Position numbers and translations under genes: made by a program. Below the pieces are notes generated by a model, which saw only the letters and a program-made list of their open reading frames with translations, had not been told where the DNA came from and did not search any database. 15,331 bases of DNA, from IMG/VR virus record IMGVR_UViG_2648501437_000028; one strand, written 5' to 3'. Source of the DNA: a virus. Its lineage: Duplodnaviria > Heunggongvirae > Uroviricota > Caudoviricetes. Every line of letters begins with the position of its first letter. The stretch's first letter is position 1. Positions 1,159-15,331 of this stretch are shown here, piece by piece.

Positions 1159-2820
1159 TTACACCCCGCTAAATTCTTCCAGTTTCTGGCGGTGGCTGTC
1201 GCTTATATCAAAAGCAAAATCCTCATGCTCTGCCTGGAATGTACCAAACGCCATCAGCGCCGCCACGCTCGGGTCTATCTTGTTCGGTGATTTTTTCTTG
1301 TTCGGCTTGATATTGGCGTTCGCGTCACTCTGCATCACGACGTTACTCATCGACCAGGACAACACCGGATCGCCACGATGCACAATCACCCTGCGGTTAA
1401 CAAAAACTTCGAACGATTTCGCCGCCGGACTGAATCTGAGGTAGGTTTGCGGGAACGGCTCCACCTCAAAACCTGCCCCCTGTAATTGCGTTCTGAGATG
1501 CGTGGCGTTCCACGTATCAAAGCCCACCAGCCTGATATTAAATTTCTCCGCGTCCTGCATGATGTCATCTCTGATCCGGTCGTAATCAATGCAGTCGCCA
1601 GGCGTTGTGCGTATCCAGCCTGCTTTAGCCCACTGACGATAGATGGCGCGGTTTTTATTGGCGGGGTTCTGTAGCTGAAATTCCGGCAGATAGTGACGGG
1701 AAACCAGCATAATGGTTTTACCGACCGGAAAGGCATAGCACACGCTGGAAATATCGCTGGTTGATGATAAGTCCAGCCCCGCGTAACACTCCTGGCCGTG
1801 TAAATCTTCCTCCGTGAACGTTCCGGCACACTCAGCCCATGCGCCGTTACCCATCCACGGGGTAGCCCCCTGGCACCAGATATTAAATCGCTTTGTCATC
1901 ATCTCCACCCACTGCGACGGAATACCCCGCGCTTTCTGGATGGTTGAGGCCAGTTTTTCACGATCGACGGAAACATCAATATTAGGGTTCGCCTTTATCC
2001 ACATCGCCGGATCATCAACCTCGTTTTCGTCGTCCAGTTCGTAAATCAGTACAAAAATTGAATCGTTAACCTCTTCGCCGTCCAGGATCTGGCAGCAATA
2101 ATCATAGTGCTGCTTACAGGCTGAAACGACGTTGCTGCCTGATGTGGTAATGGCAAATAACAGCCCTTCGGGACGTGCGCCCATCCCCAGCTCAAGCGCG
2201 GAATAAACGCCGTTATCGGGGTGCAAGTGGTATTCGTCCACGATGGAAAGGCTGGGGTTTGTTCCCTCGATGGTTGCCGCTTTTGCTGCCAGCGGCTTTA
2301 ACAGGCTGTTGCTTTTCGGGTGTATCACCTTATGCGCCTGAATATTCACCCGCCTGCGTAACGGTCGGGATAAAAGGCACATCTGACGCGCATCATCAAA
2401 GACGATCCGCGCCTGGTCACGGCTCACCGCTGCGGTGTAGATATCCTGCTGACCGTTCTCCATAATCAGAAACCAGTTAGCCAGAATCGCGGCGGTCGTG
2501 GATTTCGCATTTTTGCGCGGCACTTCGATAAAGGCGCTCGTGTATTTGCGCCGTCCGGTGGCCTTAACCTTAAAGCCGAGGATGCACGCAAAGGCGAACT
2601 GCTGCCACGGCTCCAGCTCAATGGGTCTGCCACGCATCGGTCCTTTTACGTGCGGGCACACCCTGGAAAAGGCAATAAACCGCTCCACAACCTCACGATC
2701 GAACGTGTAAAGGGGGCTTTTAAGGTCCGAAAAGTACCGTTTAACGGCCTGTTTCAGCCGTTTACAGGCCGGAATTTTGCCCGTTTTTACGTCTTCTGCG
2801 TACTTATTCCAGGCGGTCAA
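1159..2820 (-). CDS. terL: Terminase large subunit (ATPase plus nuclease)
   Basis: 553 aa; Walker A-like PRKNAKST, Walker B-like LSIVDEYH, overall terminase-like layout. Start is TTG at 2820 with GAGGA 5 nt upstream, overlapping the terS end by 17 bp. Confidence 0.85.
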   Translation of the reverse strand: MTAWNKYAEDVKTGKIPACKRLKQAVKRYFSDLKSPLYTFDREVVERFIAFSRVCPHVKGPMRGRPIELEPWQQFAFACILGFKVKATGRRKYTSAFIEVPRKNAKSTTAAILANWFLIMENGQQDIYTAAVSRDQARIVFDDARQMCLLSRPLRRRVNIQAHKVIHPKSNSLLKPLAAKAATIEGTNPSLSIVDEYHLHPDNGVYSALELGMGARPEGLLFAITTSGSNVVSACKQHYDYCCQILDGEEVNDSIFVLIYELDDENEVDDPAMWIKANPNIDVSVDREKLASTIQKARGIPSQWVEMMTKRFNIWCQGATPWMGNGAWAECAGTFTEEDLHGQECYAGLDLSSTSDISSVCYAFPVGKTIMLVSRHYLPEFQLQNPANKNRAIYRQWAKAGWIRTTPGDCIDYDRIRDDIMQDAEKFNIRLVGFDTWNATHLRTQLQGAGFEVEPFPQTYLRFSPAAKSFEVFVNRRVIVHRGDPVLSWSMSNVVMQSDANANIKPNKKKSPNKIDPSVAALMAFGTFQAEHEDFAFDISDSHRQKLEEFSGV

Positions 2821-7786: not shown

Positions 7787-8059
7787 TTATCTGTCCTGGT
7801 AATTTCGCCATATTTCATTACCAGCACCATCCATACCCATTTCGGCATAAGTGCGATCGACCGCCTTTTTCAGGTCTCCGTAGTTATCCGGCGGCTCCGG
7901 TGGCCTCTGTGCCTTCCTGGAACATTCCAGCCGTCGCATCGTGATGTGATGCCGTTCCTTGTCTGTCTCCACCAGTTGCATGACTTCACCCCATCGCGCC
8001 GACGCTCTCCGGTAAAAGCCTTTCGCCTCCAGTTCTTCCGCTATGCGGTCATGTACCAT
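7787..8059 (-). CDS. PerC-family transcriptional regulator-like protein
   Basis: About 90 aa from the ATG at 8059 (the track start at 8068 is GTG); AEELEAKGFYRRASARWGEVM resembles the PerC/Pch N-terminal signature; GAGGGGTGGGG Shine-Dalgarno upstream. Confidence 0.6.
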   Translation of the reverse strand: MVHDRIAEELEAKGFYRRASARWGEVMQLVETDKERHHITMRRLECSRKAQRPPEPPDNYGDLKKAVDRTYAEMGMDGAGNEIWRNYQDR

Positions 8060-8071
8060 CGTCCCCACCCC

Positions 8072-8482
8072 TCAGAACGGAATATCATCACCGTAAGGGT
8101 CATCGCCTCCCGCTGGTGGCTGATTACCCTGTGTGCCTGTGGTCTTGCGTCGGCTCCCACCAGGACGTGCCGCACGGGCACTGATTACGCTGTCTGCAAT
8201 AACCTGATAACCCTGCCGCGTTTCCCCGTTCTGTCCGGTCCACTGGCTGACCTGCATCGTGCCGGATACGCTGGCAACGTCGCCTTTTTGATGTTTAGCC
8301 AGGAAGTCGGCCTGCTTACCAAATGCGATGACCGATAGCCATAACGTCGCCTGTCCATCCTGTGCCTGGCTGCATGGCAGCGATACCGCCATACGCGCCA
8401 GCGTCATCGGTGTACCCTTGCTGGTCTGTTTTACCTGCGGGTCGTCCACCAGCCGCCCGTAAGCTGCTATCTGTGCTGTCAT
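8072..8482 (-). CDS. ssb: Single-stranded DNA-binding protein
   Basis: 136 aa; Gly/Pro/Gln-rich tail ending in the acidic DDIPF motif characteristic of SSB; ATGA overlap with the upstream gene. Confidence 0.8.
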   Translation of the reverse strand: MTAQIAAYGRLVDDPQVKQTSKGTPMTLARMAVSLPCSQAQDGQATLWLSVIAFGKQADFLAKHQKGDVASVSGTMQVSQWTGQNGETRQGYQVIADSVISARAARPGGSRRKTTGTQGNQPPAGGDDPYGDDIPF

Positions 8483-8757
8483 GATTCCACCTCTCCGGTT
8501 TTAACGTTGATGGTTGTTACCTGTTCCGCTTCGGCAATCTCCCGCTCTGTCAGCGTGGCAAAATTTGCCGCCGTCGTGGTCATGAATGCGCTTATCAGTT
8601 CGGGATGTGCTTTCGCGTATCCTTCCCCCGCGTGGCGGTCTATCGTTCTGATTGCCACCTTTAAAGCGTGCTCTGTCATGTCTAACGCGCGATATTTCGG
8701 TTCTGTTCTGTCTCTGCGTTTTTTGAGTGATTTATTAAATTTCCCTGAAGTGTGCAT
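8479..8757 (-). CDS. Hypothetical 92-aa protein, first gene downstream of the putative ori
   Basis: ORF track; ATG at 8757 preceded by GAGGGGG; stop overlaps the ssb start. Confidence 0.5.
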   Translation of the reverse strand: MHTSGKFNKSLKKRRDRTEPKYRALDMTEHALKVAIRTIDRHAGEGYAKAHPELISAFMTTTAANFATLTEREIAEAEQVTTINVKTGEVES

Positions 8758-8804
8758 ATTTATTTTTACCCCCTCGTTTAAAAAGTTTTGAGTTGTGCCT
8801 CCCC

Positions 8805-9030
8805 TTGTCTACCTTATCTACCTTAGTGGCCCTCATACCAGTAATGGCGCGGCTTTCAGCGGGGTAGAGTGCTTTTATCCACTATCTACCCCGTGTCTAC
8901 CTCCCTGTCTGATTCAGGTAAAATCAGGTAGAGAGGGTAGATAGTGGGTAGACAGTAAAAAAAGGTTATCTACCTAACTTAATGCACTGAATTAAATGTA
9001 TTTTTCTTTACTCAGGTAGACAGGGTAGAC
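8805..9030. repeat. Iteron array (about 12 copies of GGTAGAC/GTCTACC-type 7-8-mers in both orientations) with flanking AT-rich stretches; putative replication origin
   Basis: GTCTACC 8805, TATCTACC 8813, GGTAGAG 8861, TATCTACC 8881, GTCTACC 8893, CAGGTAGA 8923, GGGTAGAT 8933, GGGTAGACAG 8944, TTATCTACC 8964, CAGGTAGACAGGGTAGACAG 9011-9030; lies immediately 3' of the primase gene. Confidence 0.6.
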
Positions 9031-9045
9031 AGCAATTACAAAAAA

Positions 9046-10800
9046 TTATAAAAACGCGTCGCACTCGTCTGTTGTTATTGCGTTAGTCTGCGTTACTCCC
9101 TTAACTTTCCGCGTAATATATTCATGTCCGTAAACTTTCGCGGCTGGCTTCATAGCCTTGCCAAAGTCATTTACGTTTAGCGGTTTGCTCCTGCCTGCGT
9201 ACGCCATAAACGCCAGATAGACGCGGTAAAGGCTGTTTCTGGTCGTGTACTTCACTGAATCGCCACCGCCGCCCATCATCAGGCCGCGTGCTTCCTCCAG
9301 AAAATTCAGGAACTGGCAAAACTCAATAACCGGATCCGTCTGTTGCTTTATTGCCAGAGCTTCATCACCGTCACGCTGTTCCAGTAGTAAAGCCCGTGCC
9401 TTCTCAGGGTCGGTAAAGTTCGCCAGCAATCGGCGGATAATGACAGGGATTTCAGCCGCGATCTTTTCCGGTAGCTCCCTGTCTTTTTCGGCCTCACTGA
9501 CGATATTGTCGAAACGGAAAATCACGCGACGACGTGCCACACCTCCGGCCCGTTCGGTGAATATCATCGGGTTATTGTTGGTCGCCAGCACCACCGCCCT
9601 GATTACCGCCGTGAAACGCTTTTCGTATTTCGGGTTAATTTCCACGGGGTCACCGCCCGTGATTTTCTTGATGCCCGTTCCTTCGCCTGTATATTTCGGC
9701 TGGTCAGCCAGGACGATAAGACGACTCCCGACAACCTGCGCACGTCCACCAGCATCATCAAGCGATGTCATTTCAGCGCTTACCGTGTTCTGTTTCCCTG
9801 CCAGAAGGCTGGCTATGTGTGTGAATGTACTTTTACCGCTCCCGCCGTCTCCGGTGGCCTCAATAAACATCTGCCAGTCGTACCGGTTCGCCATAATCAT
9901 GTACAGCGCGGCACATATACGCATCATCTTGCGCGGGTCTTTTCCGGCTGCGTGCTCAAGCCATTTATGAAAGTTTGGCGCGTTATCGCGGATGTTCTCC
10001 CCTGGTGCTGGTGGCGTGTACTCAATGCCGTTGTGCGTGGTGATCCAGTTCTCCGGCGTGTGCGGGGAAAATTCCCCCGTTTTCAGGTCAAGCGCACCAT
10101 TGGCGAACGGCAACAAATCGCCGGACGGCTCGCCCATTGGTTCGGCAATAACTTTTAACGCTTCCACGGCGTTATTGATTACGCGCTTGCTGAAAGTGGC
10201 CCTGTGCTCTGAATAGATCGCCACCATTTCGCGGCTAAGTTCCATTGTGCTGACCGGACACCATACCCCGCCGCGCCATACGTGAACGATTTCACTTTCA
10301 GGATGTACGCAAACGCCATCAAAGCGATCGGCAAGCAGCTGCGCGCGCTCACTGTCCGCCATCTGCGAAAGTTGCGCCTTTTGCTTTACCGGAAGCTCAA
10401 TGACCAGACCATCAGAAAGATTCTGGCGCTCACGGGCCAGATATTCGCGCCAGTTCTCCACCTTCTGACCGTGCATACCATCAGGGTAAAAATTTGCATC
10501 CTGTACGCCTGCCGCCGCCAGCTTCTGACCAATCGCCTTTATCATTACTGGCGCAAGATATCCGGCCCTGAATATGCGCACGGATTTTCTGCCTTCCGGC
10601 ACAATTTGCAGCTTATCCAGTTCGGATAACTGCTGCTCCCCAAGCCACACAGGAGGCTCATTATCTCCGGCCATACGCGCGTCATGTTCCTGCCATTGTT
10701 TTGCGTGTGACCAGGCATCACTACCCGCAAAAATAATGACTTCTGTTTCTTTGTGTTTTATGCCGCGTGACTGCTGTTTTACGTTCGGTGCCAGTTTCAT
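9046..10800 (-). CDS. Primase/helicase, P4-alpha-like (TOPRIM-like N-terminus plus SF3/D5-type NTPase)
   Basis: 584 aa; Walker A GDGGSGKST, Walker B-like LIVLADQ; N-terminal acidic primase-like segment; ATGA overlap with the upstream gene. Confidence 0.8.
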   Translation of the reverse strand: MKLAPNVKQQSRGIKHKETEVIIFAGSDAWSHAKQWQEHDARMAGDNEPPVWLGEQQLSELDKLQIVPEGRKSVRIFRAGYLAPVMIKAIGQKLAAAGVQDANFYPDGMHGQKVENWREYLARERQNLSDGLVIELPVKQKAQLSQMADSERAQLLADRFDGVCVHPESEIVHVWRGGVWCPVSTMELSREMVAIYSEHRATFSKRVINNAVEALKVIAEPMGEPSGDLLPFANGALDLKTGEFSPHTPENWITTHNGIEYTPPAPGENIRDNAPNFHKWLEHAAGKDPRKMMRICAALYMIMANRYDWQMFIEATGDGGSGKSTFTHIASLLAGKQNTVSAEMTSLDDAGGRAQVVGSRLIVLADQPKYTGEGTGIKKITGGDPVEINPKYEKRFTAVIRAVVLATNNNPMIFTERAGGVARRRVIFRFDNIVSEAEKDRELPEKIAAEIPVIIRRLLANFTDPEKARALLLEQRDGDEALAIKQQTDPVIEFCQFLNFLEEARGLMMGGGGDSVKYTTRNSLYRVYLAFMAYAGRSKPLNVNDFGKAMKPAAKVYGHEYITRKVKGVTQTNAITTDECDAFL

Positions 10801-11918: not shown

Positions 11919-12351
11919 GGTGCACCTCCTGCACATCAGCCATGATAATTTTTCCGGCCTTATCCAGTGCCTGATCGGCTTTTAGCTGCACAAATGCTAA
12001 ATGGAAGATGCATTCTGATTCTCTGGCTGCGTGTTTATGCGCCCTGTCAGCAATAACAGAAATATCAATAAGCGCGTGCATCAGCGTAGTGAGCGCGGCG
12101 GCGGCTGCGTCCGGTGTGGTTTTATTGCACATGTACCCCTCCGCATTTTTTTCGTTAGAAATAAGCGTTCTTCTTTCCTGTTCATCGCTCAGGAATACGC
12201 AGACCTCACCGCTAAGGCGTTTAAGTAAGCCGATGATTGCCCCTGATTCGCTGTCGGTCATCATGCTAGGGTAATCCTCTGCCAGTGCGCAAATAACTTC
12301 GATTTGGTGGGCGCGTTCTGCTGCCTGTTGTAGTGTGATTTCCTGGCTCAT
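11911..12351 (-). CDS. Hypothetical 146-aa protein
   Basis: ORF track; ATGA overlap with the upstream 66-aa ORF. Confidence 0.5.
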   Translation of the reverse strand: MSQEITLQQAAERAHQIEVICALAEDYPSMMTDSESGAIIGLLKRLSGEVCVFLSDEQERRTLISNEKNAEGYMCNKTTPDAAAAALTTLMHALIDISVIADRAHKHAARESECIFHLAFVQLKADQALDKAGKIIMADVQEVHHA

Positions 12352-12548
12352 AAGCCTACCCCCTGACGAATACGGGCAGCAAATACCATCACGCAGCCAG
12401 CCGGAGATTGCTGGCGTGCTTCCTGTTCGCTGGTGGCCTCAATGGTAATCACGCGCGGTTGTGCCGTGCTCAGGGCGATAAAACGCCAGATGTATTTATT
12501 CAGGTTGTGCGAGTCCCGCCCTTGCGGGTGTGTGGTATGATTTCTCAT
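12348..12548 (-). CDS. Hypothetical 66-aa protein, first gene of the leftward operon
   Basis: ATG at 12548 preceded by GAGGTAG; it is the 3' part of the 384-aa track ORF, whose upstream extension I reject. Confidence 0.45.
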   Translation of the reverse strand: MRNHTTHPQGRDSHNLNKYIWRFIALSTAQPRVITIEATSEQEARQQSPAGCVMVFAARIRQGVGL

Positions 12549-12583
12549 AGCTACCTCGATACTCTCGTTATCGTTGGTGGTTA

Positions 12584-12724
12584 GAAGCCCCGTTACTGCT
12601 CCAACAGTGCGGGGCTTCGTCGTTTCAATTGCTGAATTGCATGTATCAGCACTTGTGGTATTCACATTACATTTAGGTGAATACCATTTCAAGTCTTTTT
12701 TGGTATTCACTTTTGTATTACACT
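12584..12724. promoter_or_regulatory. Divergent control region: long hairpin GAAGCCCCG...CGGGGCTTC (12584-12618) and operator-like repeats TGGTATTCAC-N11-GTGAATACCA (12656-12686), TGGTATTCAC (12701-12710), GTATTACAC (12715-12723)
   Basis: Read directly; lies between the start of the leftward operon (12548) and the start of the RHH gene (12754). Confidence 0.5.
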
Positions 12725-12753
12725 GCATCCCGTTATTAATGGGAGGTGCAAAC

Positions 12754-13059
12754 ATGTCCAGGAGTTCTGTTAACAATAAGTCACAGCAACTGAATGCCAG
12801 ATTTCCACATGAAGTAGTGAGTGGCATTGAGGCATCCCTACAGTCAGGGGAAACTAAAGCGAATTTTATAGTTACGGCTGTACGCGGTGAGATCGCCCGG
12901 CGCCAGGCAGAAGGAAGTGGAGAAAATCCCCTGGTTTCTTCGCTCGATGCACTGGCGCAGGTGGAAAAACTCGGAATCAAAGCCGCCGAGGAGATCGGGC
13001 AGCTCGTCACTGTCGCACGTGAAGAACTCCAGCGCCGCAAGACCAAAGAACCAGAGTAA
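12754..13059 (+). CDS. Ribbon-helix-helix (CopG/Arc/MetJ-like) DNA-binding protein; candidate repressor of the switch
   Basis: 101 aa from the ATG at 12754 (GGGAGGTG Shine-Dalgarno); N-terminal NARFPHEVVSGIEASLQSGETKANFIVTAVRGEIARR fits a beta-strand/helix/helix pattern; the track ORF starts further upstream at 12574. Confidence 0.55.
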   Translation: MSRSSVNNKSQQLNARFPHEVVSGIEASLQSGETKANFIVTAVRGEIARRQAEGSGENPLVSSLDALAQVEKLGIKAAEEIGQLVTVAREELQRRKTKEPE

Positions 13060-13116
13060 TCACCATCAGCGCCGTGGTGTAAGGTATTACGGCGCATTGC
13101 TATGCAGGACAACACA

Positions 13117-13290
13117 ATGACCGATAAAGAATTGACCAAAACATTATCACCGGCACGGAAAAGACGGCGCAGAAAGATAGAGCATGAATCAGAAAGATTC
13201 GCGCCATGTGCTTTTGCCCTTGAGCAATTCCTTAAAGAGTACAGGGAAAAGCGCTCATTGCAGGTATGGCAACGAACTGAACCAGACTGA
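13117..13290 (+). CDS. Small, highly basic 57-aa protein
   Basis: ATG at 13117 with AGGAC upstream (track ORF starts at 13102); contains the RKRRRRK run; function unknown. Confidence 0.4.
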   Translation: MTDKELTKTLSPARKRRRRKIEHESERFAPCAFALEQFLKEYREKRSLQVWQRTEPD

Positions 13291-13385
13291 TTGCATTGCC
13301 CACCAGCCTGATAACGGCTATCATCCCCGTGCTTATGTTTGGGATCACACACACAAACGGCGCAGCGGGTTATCTGTTCAGAAAG

Positions 13386-13413
13386 GCGGCTCCATTTCGG
13401 GGCCGCTTTTTTT
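13386..13413 (+). terminator. Intrinsic terminator, possibly bidirectional, between the convergent plus-strand pair and alpA
   Basis: GCGGCTCC-ATTTC-GGGGCCGC stem (one G-U pair) followed by TTTTTTT on the plus strand; A-run on the other side. Confidence 0.6.
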
Positions 13414-13559
13414 ATACCTGAAAAACCCCAATTTTGTTGTTTTTCAGTTTCACCAGGGCGAACGAATCCCCGCCCACGTTCTGGCGTATATTCAATCTTC
13501 ATGGTTATAGCTCTGTGTTCAGATGATTGATGTGTGGCGGCTGCGTGCCGCCAGCGTGA

Positions 13560-13748
13560 TTAATGAACTGCCTTGCAGCTATCCTTCCAGGCCAGAACCT
13601 CGGATAAAGACCAGCCAACGGAACGACCGCCAAGTTTACGACGTGATGGGAATTGTCCGGCCTTTTCCAGGCGGTAGCGACACGTACGGCTAAGGCCGGT
13701 TAGTTTTTCGCATTCTTTTTCACGTATAAACCGATCAGTGCTTAACAC
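13560..13748 (-). CDS. alpA: AlpA/Vis-family (excisionase-like) regulator
   Basis: LTGLSRTCRYRLEKAGQFPSRRKLGGRSVGWSLSEVLAWK matches the AlpA-type winged-HTH pattern. I prefer the GTG start at 13748 (AGGGGGG 5 nt upstream, ~62 aa) over the track TTG start at 13829. Confidence 0.7.
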   Translation of the reverse strand: MLSTDRFIREKECEKLTGLSRTCRYRLEKAGQFPSRRKLGGRSVGWSLSEVLAWKDSCKAVH

Positions 13749-14020
13749 TATTGCCCCCCTTTCGTTTCTTAAAGAGTCATCAGGTGTCTTATTGTGTCGT
13801 ATTGTTCCCGCTAGAGTGATGAATGGCAAATACTGAGGATGTATGATTTACAGAAAATGAAACAGTAAGAATAAAATCTTTTAAATTCATGTTAATACAA
13901 AGGCATAAAATATTGTTCCATGCCTTTTTTCTCGCTCTTTAAAGAGTGATTCGCTAGTGTACAAAAAACCAGTAACACATTAAAAATCAGCTACTTATAA
14001 ATCCGTACGCTTTTTCGCCT

Positions 14021-14113: not shown

Positions 14114-15331
14114 TTATTTTCTTCTGGCTACGGGTAGCGTGGTTACGTTTTCATGTGTTCCCGCCAGTATCCCTAACCGCTCCGTCCACATATCCAGCGC
14201 ATTGCGTTTCGCATCCAGATAACGGGAATGATTATAAACTCGCTGCATTCCTGGCATCTGGTGGCCTGTAAGCTGCTCCACGACATGCGGATCAACGCCT
14301 AAATCGTTCAGCATGGTTGTAAAGGTGCGCCGGATGTCATGCAGTGACCAGTGAGGGTGATTAAGCCTCCTGTGCGCTAATCTTCCATACTGCGATACGC
14401 TGGCCTCCTGTTTCACTTCCCCCAGCAATAAGCCCGTGTGCCTGTTCTGCTCCACCAGCTGCGTGACGAACGGCAGGATCGCTTCCGGTATGGGCCGGAA
14501 TATTGCGACCTTCGTTTTGCTGTGCTCCTTCGGAACGGTCCATAGCATTTCCGTAAAATCCCACTCCCCGATCTCCGATAACCTCAGTTCTACCGTTCTG
14601 GCTCCGAAGACAATCAGGAGGCGGATTAACGCGACGTAGTAAGGGGAGAATATTTTTTTGTCCAGTGCCTGCAATAATTCGCCAAGTTCTTTGTTACTTA
14701 AGACACGTTCGCTTATATCCGGTTTTTTCCCAACGTCCGCAACGTTCAGATCGTCCAGAACGTTGCTGATTGCATAGCGCCGCCTACGGCAGAACTTAAG
14801 CGCCTGTTTGCACGCCTGTAGCACGAATCCGGCAGTAACAGGCGTTCGCTTTGCCACCTGGTCAAAACAGGCCAGCCAGTGCCGTAGCTCGCATTTATCC
14901 AGCGGCATAGCACCAATCTGCTGTATTACGTGATTATTAAGTCGCCTTTTCAGGGCGATATAATCCACGCGGTTTTCCTTTACGTAATACTCAAGCCAGT
15001 AGGTGAGCGCATCGCCAACCGTTACGGGCTTTAACGCTTCCTGTACGGTGTAATTCATCTCATGACGTGGATTTTTCCCCTCAGCCAGCCATGTGCGACA
15101 CTGTGCGGCTTTTTCCCTGGCTGCTTTCAGGCTCAGATCAGGATAACTTCCCAGCTTAATGCGTTCGGGTCGTGTCTCCCTTCCCGTTCCGGCCCTGTAT
15201 GTGAAATACCAGGTCAATTTCCCTGATGTTAAATATTTCACGCTCAGGTTTCCGCCATCACTATAAAACGTGTTTTTCTCCGCTGGCTTACCATGAAGTT
15301 TCCTTAGCAAGGTATCGCTCAGTTTGTTCAT
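14114..15331 (-). CDS. int: Tyrosine integrase (P4-like phage integrase family)
   Basis: 405 aa; C-terminal catalytic signature HDIRRT ... H ... RVYNHSRY (R, H-x-x-R, Tyr nucleophile); ATG is exactly at the window end. Confidence 0.9.
   Translation of the reverse strand: MNKLSDTLLRKLHGKPAEKNTFYSDGGNLSVKYLTSGKLTWYFTYRAGTGRETRPERIKLGSYPDLSLKAAREKAAQCRTWLAEGKNPRHEMNYTVQEALKPVTVGDALTYWLEYYVKENRVDYIALKRRLNNHVIQQIGAMPLDKCELRHWLACFDQVAKRTPVTAGFVLQACKQALKFCRRRRYAISNVLDDLNVADVGKKPDISERVLSNKELGELLQALDKKIFSPYYVALIRLLIVFGARTVELRLSEIGEWDFTEMLWTVPKEHSKTKVAIFRPIPEAILPFVTQLVEQNRHTGLLLGEVKQEASVSQYGRLAHRRLNHPHWSLHDIRRTFTTMLNDLGVDPHVVEQLTGHQMPGMQRVYNHSRYLDAKRNALDMWTERLGILAGTHENVTTLPVARRK

Follow-up and report, generated by a model that had tools for sequence, protein, structure and literature searches.

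We have analyzed a 15,331-nucleotide stretch of DNA (IMG/VR record IMGVR_UViG_2648501437_000028; here called the window), which is a phage satellite of Escherichia coli of the capsid-forming phage-inducible chromosomal island (PICI; cf-PICI for the capsid-forming type) class. Two adjacent plus-strand genes between positions 12754 and 13290 code for a likely ribbon-helix-helix (RHH) protein of 101 aa and for a basic protein of 57 aa, and we consider it probable (at about 0.6) that they constitute a protein-based immunity, or maintenance, operon of this Gram-negative PICI. This reading is carried by the variation among related islands, in which the N-terminal type of the first protein changes together with a set of repeated operator-like motifs over divergent candidate promoters. 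A preliminary description of this DNA, made from its letters alone, had taken the first gene for an RHH-type DNA-binding protein and, as one option, for a repressor of the element's switch, and the covariation of protein type and motif supports that proposal.

It has been stated to be unclear whether Gram-negative PICIs have a global repressor (PMC6092414). These islands are widespread, and they mobilize virulence and defense genes; an RHH family with matched operators is a concrete candidate for the missing global repressor and for satellite immunity types. The features of the operon and of the region upstream are given below in window coordinates.

12656-12665, plus strand: operator-like site O1 (TGGTATTCAC), overlapping the -10 and start of the leftward promoter
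12664-12692, minus strand: candidate leftward sigma-70 promoter toward the icd-like gene (-35 TTGAAA at 12692-12687, 17-nt spacer, -10 TAATGT at 12669-12664), a consensus match
12677-12686, minus strand: operator-like site O2, TGGTATTCAC read on this strand, between the -35 and -10 of the leftward promoter
12701-12710, plus strand: operator-like site O3 (TGGTATTCAC), in the spacer of the rightward RHH promoter
12719-12724, plus strand: tentative -10 (TACACT) of the RHH promoter, placed where other types have TATACT/TATATT, scoring 6 of 12
12754-13059, plus strand: RHH-like (Arc/Mnt-like, YlcI/YnfO family) putative repressor gene, 101 aa, from family matches
13069-13095, plus strand: intercistronic hairpin, GCGCCGT...ACGGCGC
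13117-13290, plus strand: gene for the 57-aa basic protein (pI 9.9), with a disordered Arg/Lys-rich N-terminus and one amphipathic helix
13380-13416, plus strand: intrinsic terminator of the two-gene operon, from fold energy against shuffles

Covariation of RHH type and operator-like repeats

We compared 166 loci that encode the 57-aa protein, taken from metagenomes, IMG/VR and genomes. An RHH-like small open reading frame (ORF) lies upstream of the 57-aa ORF on the same strand wherever the upstream DNA is readable, and is intact except at five frameshifted loci. The upstream proteins have many N-terminal types, which sort into 14 specificity groups, each with a distinct motif of 8-13 bp. Thirteen of the groups have two to four copies of their motif, near -100, -76 and -30 relative to the start of the RHH gene and within -125 to -15. 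No group motif has a copy in another group, save for two near-identical groups that share a core. The sequence variation among RHH types is concentrated in the predicted beta-strand, and groups with the same strand (QQLNARFPH) share the half-site GTGAAT. In the window, three perfect 10-bp copies of TGGTATTCAC are clustered at 12656, 12677 (inverted) and 12701, and at one mismatch or fewer there are six matches in the whole window, a number reached by none of 200 shuffles. The GTGTTGAACAC type, one of the other RHH alleles, is heterologous to that of the window. The same operator and promoter layout is present in Klebsiella, Yersinia and Serratia.

The promoter-like scaffold is shared as well. 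A leftward -35 (TTGAC or TTGAA) stands at -62 from the RHH ATG and is followed after 17-18 nt by a TAnnnT -10 in 12 of the 14 groups, with scores of 7-10 of 12 (at least 8 in 11 of these 12 groups), and the -10 of the RHH promoter in the other groups is TATACT-like on the plus strand. Short repeats near the gene's own promoter, as in the RHH superfamily, are recognized here through comparison of the alleles. Together the layout and the covariation point to the RHH protein as a putative allele-specific repressor of the immunity type, acting on its own gene and on the leftward icd/replication operon. We looked for operator copies near the alpA promoter and found none, so the RHH protein probably does not control alpA directly. 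One further copy with a single mismatch, TGGTAATCAC at 12443-12452 (plus strand), is located within the icd-like gene, some 200 bp from O1, and may be an auxiliary site or a chance match.

The RHH-like protein and its C-terminal cassette

The predicted DNA-binding part of the first protein occupies approximately residues 8-51 and is followed by an optional helical cassette of 42 aa at about residues 52-93. NCBIfam model NF041551 (YlcI_YnfO_N) matches residues 9-50 with 59.8 bits against a cutoff of 30 (E 2e-16), which places the protein in the YlcI/YnfO family, the name that RefSeq gives its homologs; phrog_6522 matches at 1.6e-45. When a profile of 32 homologs was compared by hhalign, its beta-strand and helix A fell in register with Arc at an E-value of 0.003 but a probability of 10%, and in this low-probability alignment the pattern QQLNARFPHEVV...SGETKANF stands opposite Arc PQFNLRWPREVL. 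Partner RHH types in the same slot give sub-threshold matches to Arc (0.038) and HicB (5e-4) and an above-cutoff match to DUF3950, and one homolog is named CopG family by one source. An AlphaFold2 (AF2) monomer model (mean predicted local distance difference test score, pLDDT, 74.5) has helices at residues 19-28 and 35-53 and a long helix at 59-98; the N-terminal segment is modeled as a helix (8-16), not as a strand, and fold searches with the model were uninformative. The RHH assignment of the first gene is likely from these sequence comparisons, and not from structure.

The preliminary description had noticed a C-terminal extension of about 45 aa and likened it to those of RHH antitoxins. 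The extension is present, as a 42-aa cassette (AEGSGENPL...REELQ) inserted between EI(A/K)RRQ and RRKAKEPE, although the antitoxin likeness does not hold, since the cassette is optional and is predicted to form one long helix. The same N-terminal RHH type is found with and without it, and most RHH partners of the 57-aa protein lack it, being 57-65 aa long with a basic tail. The cassette weakly matches an Hef helix-hairpin-helix motif (E 0.0076), for which AF2 gives one long helix instead. A role in Mnt-like oligomerization or in DNA contact is more plausible than toxin binding.

Organization of the operon

The RHH ORF is preceded by a Shine-Dalgarno (SD) sequence, GGGAGG at 12741-12746, 7 nt 5' of its ATG, and the 57-aa ORF by AGGA at 13106-13109, also 7 nt 5' of the ATG; another ATG for the latter, at 13102, has no SD sequence. 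The gap between the two genes is 57 nt and contains the hairpin at 13069-13095, which is kept at loci L173 and L174 even beside divergent second genes. Downstream, the hairpin at 13380-13412 with its U-run folds on the plus strand at -21.7 kcal/mol (z = -6.5; equaled by none of 200 shuffles), whereas its minus-strand reading gives only -12.3 kcal/mol and a poor tail; at L173 and L174 terminator-like plus-strand hairpins likewise lie 3' of the second gene. The strong terminator that the preliminary description had placed at the end of the pair is confirmed by this fold, as is its remark that the two genes run against the rest of the element: they are the sole credible plus-strand genes in the window, and all other credible genes are on the minus strand.

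The RHH and 57-aa ORFs are real genes and not a chance pair of ORFs. That both are shadows of the long ORF on the opposite strand was considered and rejected because of the family matches and the operator covariation.

RefSeq labels this stretch inconsistently, as a minus-strand 'Icd-like' pseudogene, a 'BRO-N' pseudogene or a hypothetical protein (L001 14383-14943; L002 2848-3441; L175 1836-2091; L177 1561-2008); in other genomes the plus-strand pair is called instead, and the 57-aa gene frequently goes uncalled. For annotation, the consequence is a pseudogene (Icd-like or BRO-N) called on the wrong strand, and a 57-aa gene that is often left out.

An eta-like leader on the opposite strand

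Both genes lie antisense within a long minus-strand ORF that resembles eta of satellite P4.

12348-13502, minus strand: eta-like long ORF (384 codons) opposite the RHH and 57-aa genes, sharing its frame with alpA and the nested icd-like gene
12348-12551, minus strand: nested icd-like gene, 67 aa, with its own SD sequence (GAGG) and an ATGA overlap with the next gene (NF033153, 1.4e-19; annotated by RefSeq in L001)
12584-12618: conserved hairpin with a stem that covaries among islands (10 pairs with compensatory changes), lying between the operators and the start of the icd-like gene

The only stop between the eta-like ORF and alpA is that of alpA itself, and the ORF ends in an Icd-like domain (residues 337-380; NF033153, 2.4e-18). 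The stretch without stops on the minus strand has a median length of 359 codons in 125 unique regions, and a minus frame is open regardless of RHH type, of spacer configuration and of the second gene, also in L173 and in Klebsiella, Yersinia and Serratia. The ORF is 229-428 aa long in other genera and variants, and in Yersinia and Serratia it overlaps the upstream gene by 4 nt. We tried and rejected the proposition that the long ORF is always in frame with alpA; this is true in only one spacer configuration, and in the others a different frame is open. When only the plus-strand noncoding parts were shuffled, the frame was open in at most 1% of trials (25 sampled configurations); synonymous shuffling inside the RHH genes gave modest support for stop avoidance, the strong signal coming from the noncoding parts. 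Wobble alignment of the sense with the antisense frame makes it feasible for both to be used. Downstream of the 57-aa gene, the minus ORF is under little or no constraint at the protein level (variable sites at the three codon positions 9/7/13; ratio of nonsynonymous to synonymous polymorphism, pN/pS, 0.48 from few sites).

The long eta ORF of P4 has its translation coupled to that of vis, an alpA homolog; the constitutive promoter PLE lies within eta and kil is nested at its end (PMC10111431), and its translation from the upstream late promoter prevents termination and leads to read-through (PMC10111431, citing Forti et al. 1999). The 214-aa eta ORF in the P4 record (8168-8812) overlaps vis and has the same Icd-like domain (1.4e-20). 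The ORF described here likewise follows the alpA-family gene, ends in an Icd-like domain and contains a nested gene, as P4-type eta/kil leaders do, and by this analogy it is best explained as a counterpart of P4 eta/kil, which is a known kind of gene. If translation of this leader keeps transcription from terminating, as that of eta does in P4, this would explain why the antisense frame stays open.

A search of the whole window against Rfam up to E = 1 gave no C4, isrK or CI-type RNA, and only a spurious sub-threshold RsaJ match on a hairpin. An extended -10-like element, TGGTATGAT, stands in the first codons of the icd-like gene (12533-12630, plus strand) and is kept as TGGTATGAT or TGGTATAAT while the encoded residues change; it is followed by an invariant stem-loop and then by the hairpin at 12584-12618 with a T-rich tail. 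Together these elements, which have no Rfam match, could give rise to a plus-strand RNA, approximately 80 nt long, that is antisense to the SD sequence and start codon of the icd-like gene.

Proposed mechanism

We propose that an Arc/Mnt-like RHH repressor would bind the three 10-bp TGGTATTCAC sites, O1-O3 (12656-12710), over back-to-back promoters. At O1 and O2 it would shut the leftward promoter for the icd-like, replication and probably packaging genes, and at O3 it would limit its own promoter; the many allelic repressor and operator specificities would be akin to the heteroimmunity groups of phages. In the quiescent state the RHH operon would be on, with the 57-aa protein made alongside. 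Induction would begin with the switching on of alpA upon helper infection. Transcripts running leftward, which translation of the eta-like ORF would shield from polarity, would then cross the terminator, the 57-aa and RHH genes and the operators to reach the icd-like and replication genes, translated read-through across the pair being expected because of the P4 eta precedent. AlpA-driven transcription would oppose repressor expression through convergent transcription and RNA pairing, and the outcome would be a toggle. Judged against P4, the most economical reading is that a protein repressor module takes the place of P4's RNA immunity within the same leader.

Several points weigh against this account. 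Control of Gram-negative PICIs has been ascribed to activation by AlpA, with alpA activating its own promoter (PMC6092414), and published work does not mention the operon, so the operon could be dispensable for induction. DNA binding and repression by the RHH protein are read from sequence comparison, and Pfam RHH models score the window's own protein below threshold. The promoters are consensus matches, the rightward one weak in the window, and a promoter scan lists neither. Homology of the eta-like ORF to P4 eta is limited to the C-terminal domain (pairwise BLASTP E 0.51). Finally, sense-frame constraint on the 57-aa ORF is moderate (variable sites by codon position 16/14/21), and no homolog assigns its product a function.

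A broader reading joins all of the parts. RHH alleles would be the master repressors of Gram-negative PICIs, defining satellite heteroimmunity groups and constituting the point of derepression by helper phages; AlpA-driven, ribosome-protected read-through would erase repressor expression in a dual-coded convergent toggle; and the Escherichia-specific, Arg-rich 57-aa peptide would be a new small modulator, for example a Nun/N-like RNA-binding or docking peptide that tunes read-through or the interaction with the helper. This combination is speculative, and we think it unlikely to hold as a whole.

The 57-aa protein

The second protein matches phrog_21027 (1.2e-15) and contains the RKRRRRK run reported in the preliminary description. 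The AF2 model has a disordered basic N-terminus and one helix at residues 29-54 (pLDDT up to 92), and there is no hydrophobic segment. The conserved core is ERFAPCAFALExFLKEY, within which the alignment shows E..ERFAPC.F.LE..LK as invariant; the ends are variable and there are in-frame indels. All 36 clusters of the family are from E. coli or Shigella, with nine representatives among 1.84e9 proteins, and a scan of GTDB species representatives gave one locus, in Shigella flexneri. Neither this protein nor the RHH protein was found by tblastn in 50,697 phage records. A family member with about 50% divergence is encoded in the same position in L173. In L174 the same 101-aa RHH type is followed by a 69-aa variant second gene (2054-2263, plus strand), which shares only PAPTKFALDEFLNK with the 57-aa family (hhalign E 4e-4), the remaining sequence being unrelated; this variant, too, is present only in E. 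coli (3 clusters).

No covariation of the 57-aa protein with RHH type or alpA allele was seen, which argues against a specificity-determining partnership with the RHH protein, and in Klebsiella, Yersinia and Serratia the corresponding slot is filled by an RHH homolog with no 57-aa gene beside it. Because of these two observations, the 57-aa protein is an accessory product of the repressor operon and not an obligatory partner. The preliminary description had suggested, as one possibility, a repressor and co-repressor of the switch. The first gene stands as a repressor-type regulator of the switch, as the operator covariation suggests, and an RHH-like ORF does lie upstream of the 57-aa gene; the constancy of the pair fails in the three other genera. 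The 57-aa protein is most likely a docking or nucleic-acid-binding modulator that is made during quiescence of the island, and not a toxin. We favor a modulator or effector with a target outside the module because the protein is independent of the RHH and alpA alleles and is host-restricted.

The same considerations bear on an Arc-Ant-like arrangement, in which the 57-aa protein is the effector (an anti-activator, an anti-repressor, or a protein acting on a helper-phage or host target), the RHH protein mainly throttles its synthesis, and the small protein couples the island to E. coli helper phages. Conservation regardless of RHH type or alpA allele is as expected for a target outside the module. 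Restriction to Escherichia and Shigella satellites together with absence from the phage records also fits, as does a basic charge that is conserved in all versions (pI 9.7-10.3) though its position shifts, the basic run being at the C-terminus in one of them. The short conserved helix FALExFLK resembles a docking motif, and the gene shares a transcript with the repressor, a common arrangement among genes expressed in lysogeny, such as lambda rexAB and P22 arc-ant. However, the searches gave no partner and no homolog of known function, the RHH operators also lie on the leftward operon promoter, which makes the RHH protein more than a throttle, and the RHH gene persists in other genera where the second gene is missing. 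We therefore regard an Arc-Ant-like arrangement as conceivable, albeit unlikely.

It is more doubtful still that the 57-aa ORF is non-functional, open as a shadow of the eta-like ORF or of an RNA or DNA element, with the RHH protein acting alone. Since the two frames are wobble-aligned, constraint on one mimics constraint on the other, and the antisense frame is under selection to stay open; the third-position enrichment of variable sites is weak, RefSeq often omits the ORF, its C-terminal tail tolerates frameshifts, and the RHH gene occurs alone elsewhere. Yet the ORF is intact with its ATG in 164 of the 166 loci, a result that answers the doubt raised in the preliminary description as to its conservation, and the ATG and an SD-like AGG are present in every version, those diverged by about 50% included. 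The pN/pS of the sense frame is 0.38, the lowest of the six frames, as compared to 0.63 for the open antisense frame; in three divergent versions the conserved P, A, F and L are specified by different synonymous codons while the antisense residues change; and the core motif is kept in the otherwise unrelated 69-aa variant. Because the ORF is intact in nearly all loci, has the lowest pN/pS in the sense frame and keeps its core through synonymous codons, we conclude that it encodes a real protein.

The toxin-antitoxin question

The preliminary description had also offered a type II toxin-antitoxin (TA) or addiction module, with the RHH protein as antitoxin and autorepressor and the 57-aa protein as an island-stabilizing toxin. 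The gene order, RHH first and small partner second, and the autoregulatory repeats upstream are those of such modules; there is a weak Pfam match to PSK_trans_fac (VapB-like; E 0.0063, below cutoff), one partner RHH type is near threshold for HicB, and the 57-aa gene is never found without an upstream RHH gene. Against this, the 57-aa protein has no toxin family match in Pfam, NCBIfam or PADLOC and no relative in the PDB. The RHH extension is modeled as one long helix, unlike an antitoxin tail, and the 57-aa protein as a disordered tail and a single helix, without a globular fold. The extension that would have to bind the toxin is the optional cassette, and the same 57-aa protein occurs beside cassette-free RHH proteins. 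The genes do not overlap and are not tightly coupled, being separated by the hairpin-containing 57-nt gap; they recombine independently, with no covariation; and the RHH gene stands alone in Klebsiella, Yersinia and Serratia. At five loci the RHH gene is frameshifted and the 57-aa ORF intact, with homopolymer sequencing error possible for three of them. With no toxin family or fold, a C-terminal tail that is optional, no coupling of the genes and no inheritance as a unit, a TA module is very unlikely.

The five loci with a frameshifted RHH gene are L099, L121, L131, L051 and L070. Three share a change in an A7 run, which could reflect a real decay lineage, phase variation or sequencing error. 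PADLOC gave no defense-system match for the RHH protein, the 57-aa protein or the neighboring genes.

Comparison with known systems

RHH repressors with operator alleles and eta-like leaders are each already known kinds. We found no description in the searchable literature of their combination, an allelic RHH immunity operon that is antisense within the eta-like ORF of Gram-negative PICIs and has an Escherichia-specific basic partner.

The immI region of P22 (Mnt; Arc-Ant) is similar in having small RHH repressors, short repeated operators and closely spaced divergent promoters, with binding here being predicted, and in having an RHH gene followed by a second gene in the same operon. P22 Mnt has a C-terminal helical oligomerization extension, like the 101-aa form, and Arc-sized forms (57-65 aa) also occur among the islands. 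The sequence likeness is confined to the weak in-register Arc match (E 0.003), however, and the operon that would be regulated here consists of the satellite's icd-like and replication genes and not of an antirepressor gene; the second gene encodes a 57-aa peptide and not Ant, and the operon is antisense inside another ORF.

In the immunity region of P4, as here, a gene of the alpA/vis family is followed by a long overlapping or abutting ORF with an Icd-like end (NF033153 in both), a nested C-terminal gene (kil or icd-like), an internal leftward promoter and, downstream, a P4-family primase gene. In contrast, immunity of P4 is conferred by RNA (CI, with seqA/seqC) and nothing is encoded opposite eta, whereas here a plus-strand RHH operon and its type-specific operators lie inside the eta-like ORF and no CI, C4 or isrK RNA was detected in the window; outside the C-terminal domain the long ORFs are not alignable. 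The placement of the operon in an eta-like leader ties PICI regulation to the P4 immunity region, with a protein repressor presumably replacing an RNA one.

Stl of Staphylococcus aureus pathogenicity islands (SaPIs) and Rpr of Gram-positive PICIs are likewise allelically diverse satellite repressors, encoded at the integrase end and divergently from the excision, replication and packaging operon. They differ in being larger helix-turn-helix proteins that are derepressed by helper-phage proteins; here the candidate is an RHH protein and the AlpA activator is needed (PMC6092414). The TA modules with RHH antitoxins (ParD-ParE, omega-epsilon-zeta, VapB-like) share the RHH gene in first place, a small partner and upstream autoregulatory repeats, but here there is no recognizable toxin, the extension is optional, the genes are uncoupled and not conserved as a unit, and the partner is a single helix. 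In immI of P1 (c4 RNA, icd, ant) the first gene of a tightly regulated operon is also of the icd family, with its translation coupled to that of the gene that follows, and a small antisense RNA may lie over the icd start here as well. Control in P1 is by the trans-acting C4 RNA, unlike the divergent candidate RHH repressor of the window, where there is no Rfam match to C4.

Genomic context

The satellite adjoins tqsA. Its minus-strand genes include int, alpA, a string of small genes, a DUF4222 gene, a P4-family primase gene and a single-stranded DNA-binding protein gene, as well as a packaging set of HK97-type capsid, protease, portal, connectors, HNH, and small and large terminase. This gene layout agrees with that published for cf-PICIs (10.1101/2022.09.08.507074). 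The module was matched in 1319 of 5426 complete E. coli genomes. The genes at the integrase end of the window are as follows.

13560-13829, minus strand: alpA (activator/excisionase family; Pfam Phage_AlpA, 1.5e-16), convergent with the RHH/57-aa pair
14114-15331, minus strand: int, from the gene list of the window

A 93-aa ORF at 7787-8068 (minus strand) has as its counterpart in L001 a gene annotated by RefSeq as a PerC family transcriptional regulator, and a PerC-like PICI gene has been reported as a repressor of the locus of enterocyte effacement (LEE) (PMC11773190). Opposite the primase gene, at 9245-9970 (plus strand), there is a 241-aa ORF that is probably a shadow ORF open by chance. 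Directly after the alpA stop, and ahead of the eta-like ATG, there is a GC-rich hairpin without a U-tail at 13539-13557 (minus strand; GGCGGC...GCCGCC, -13.9 kcal/mol).

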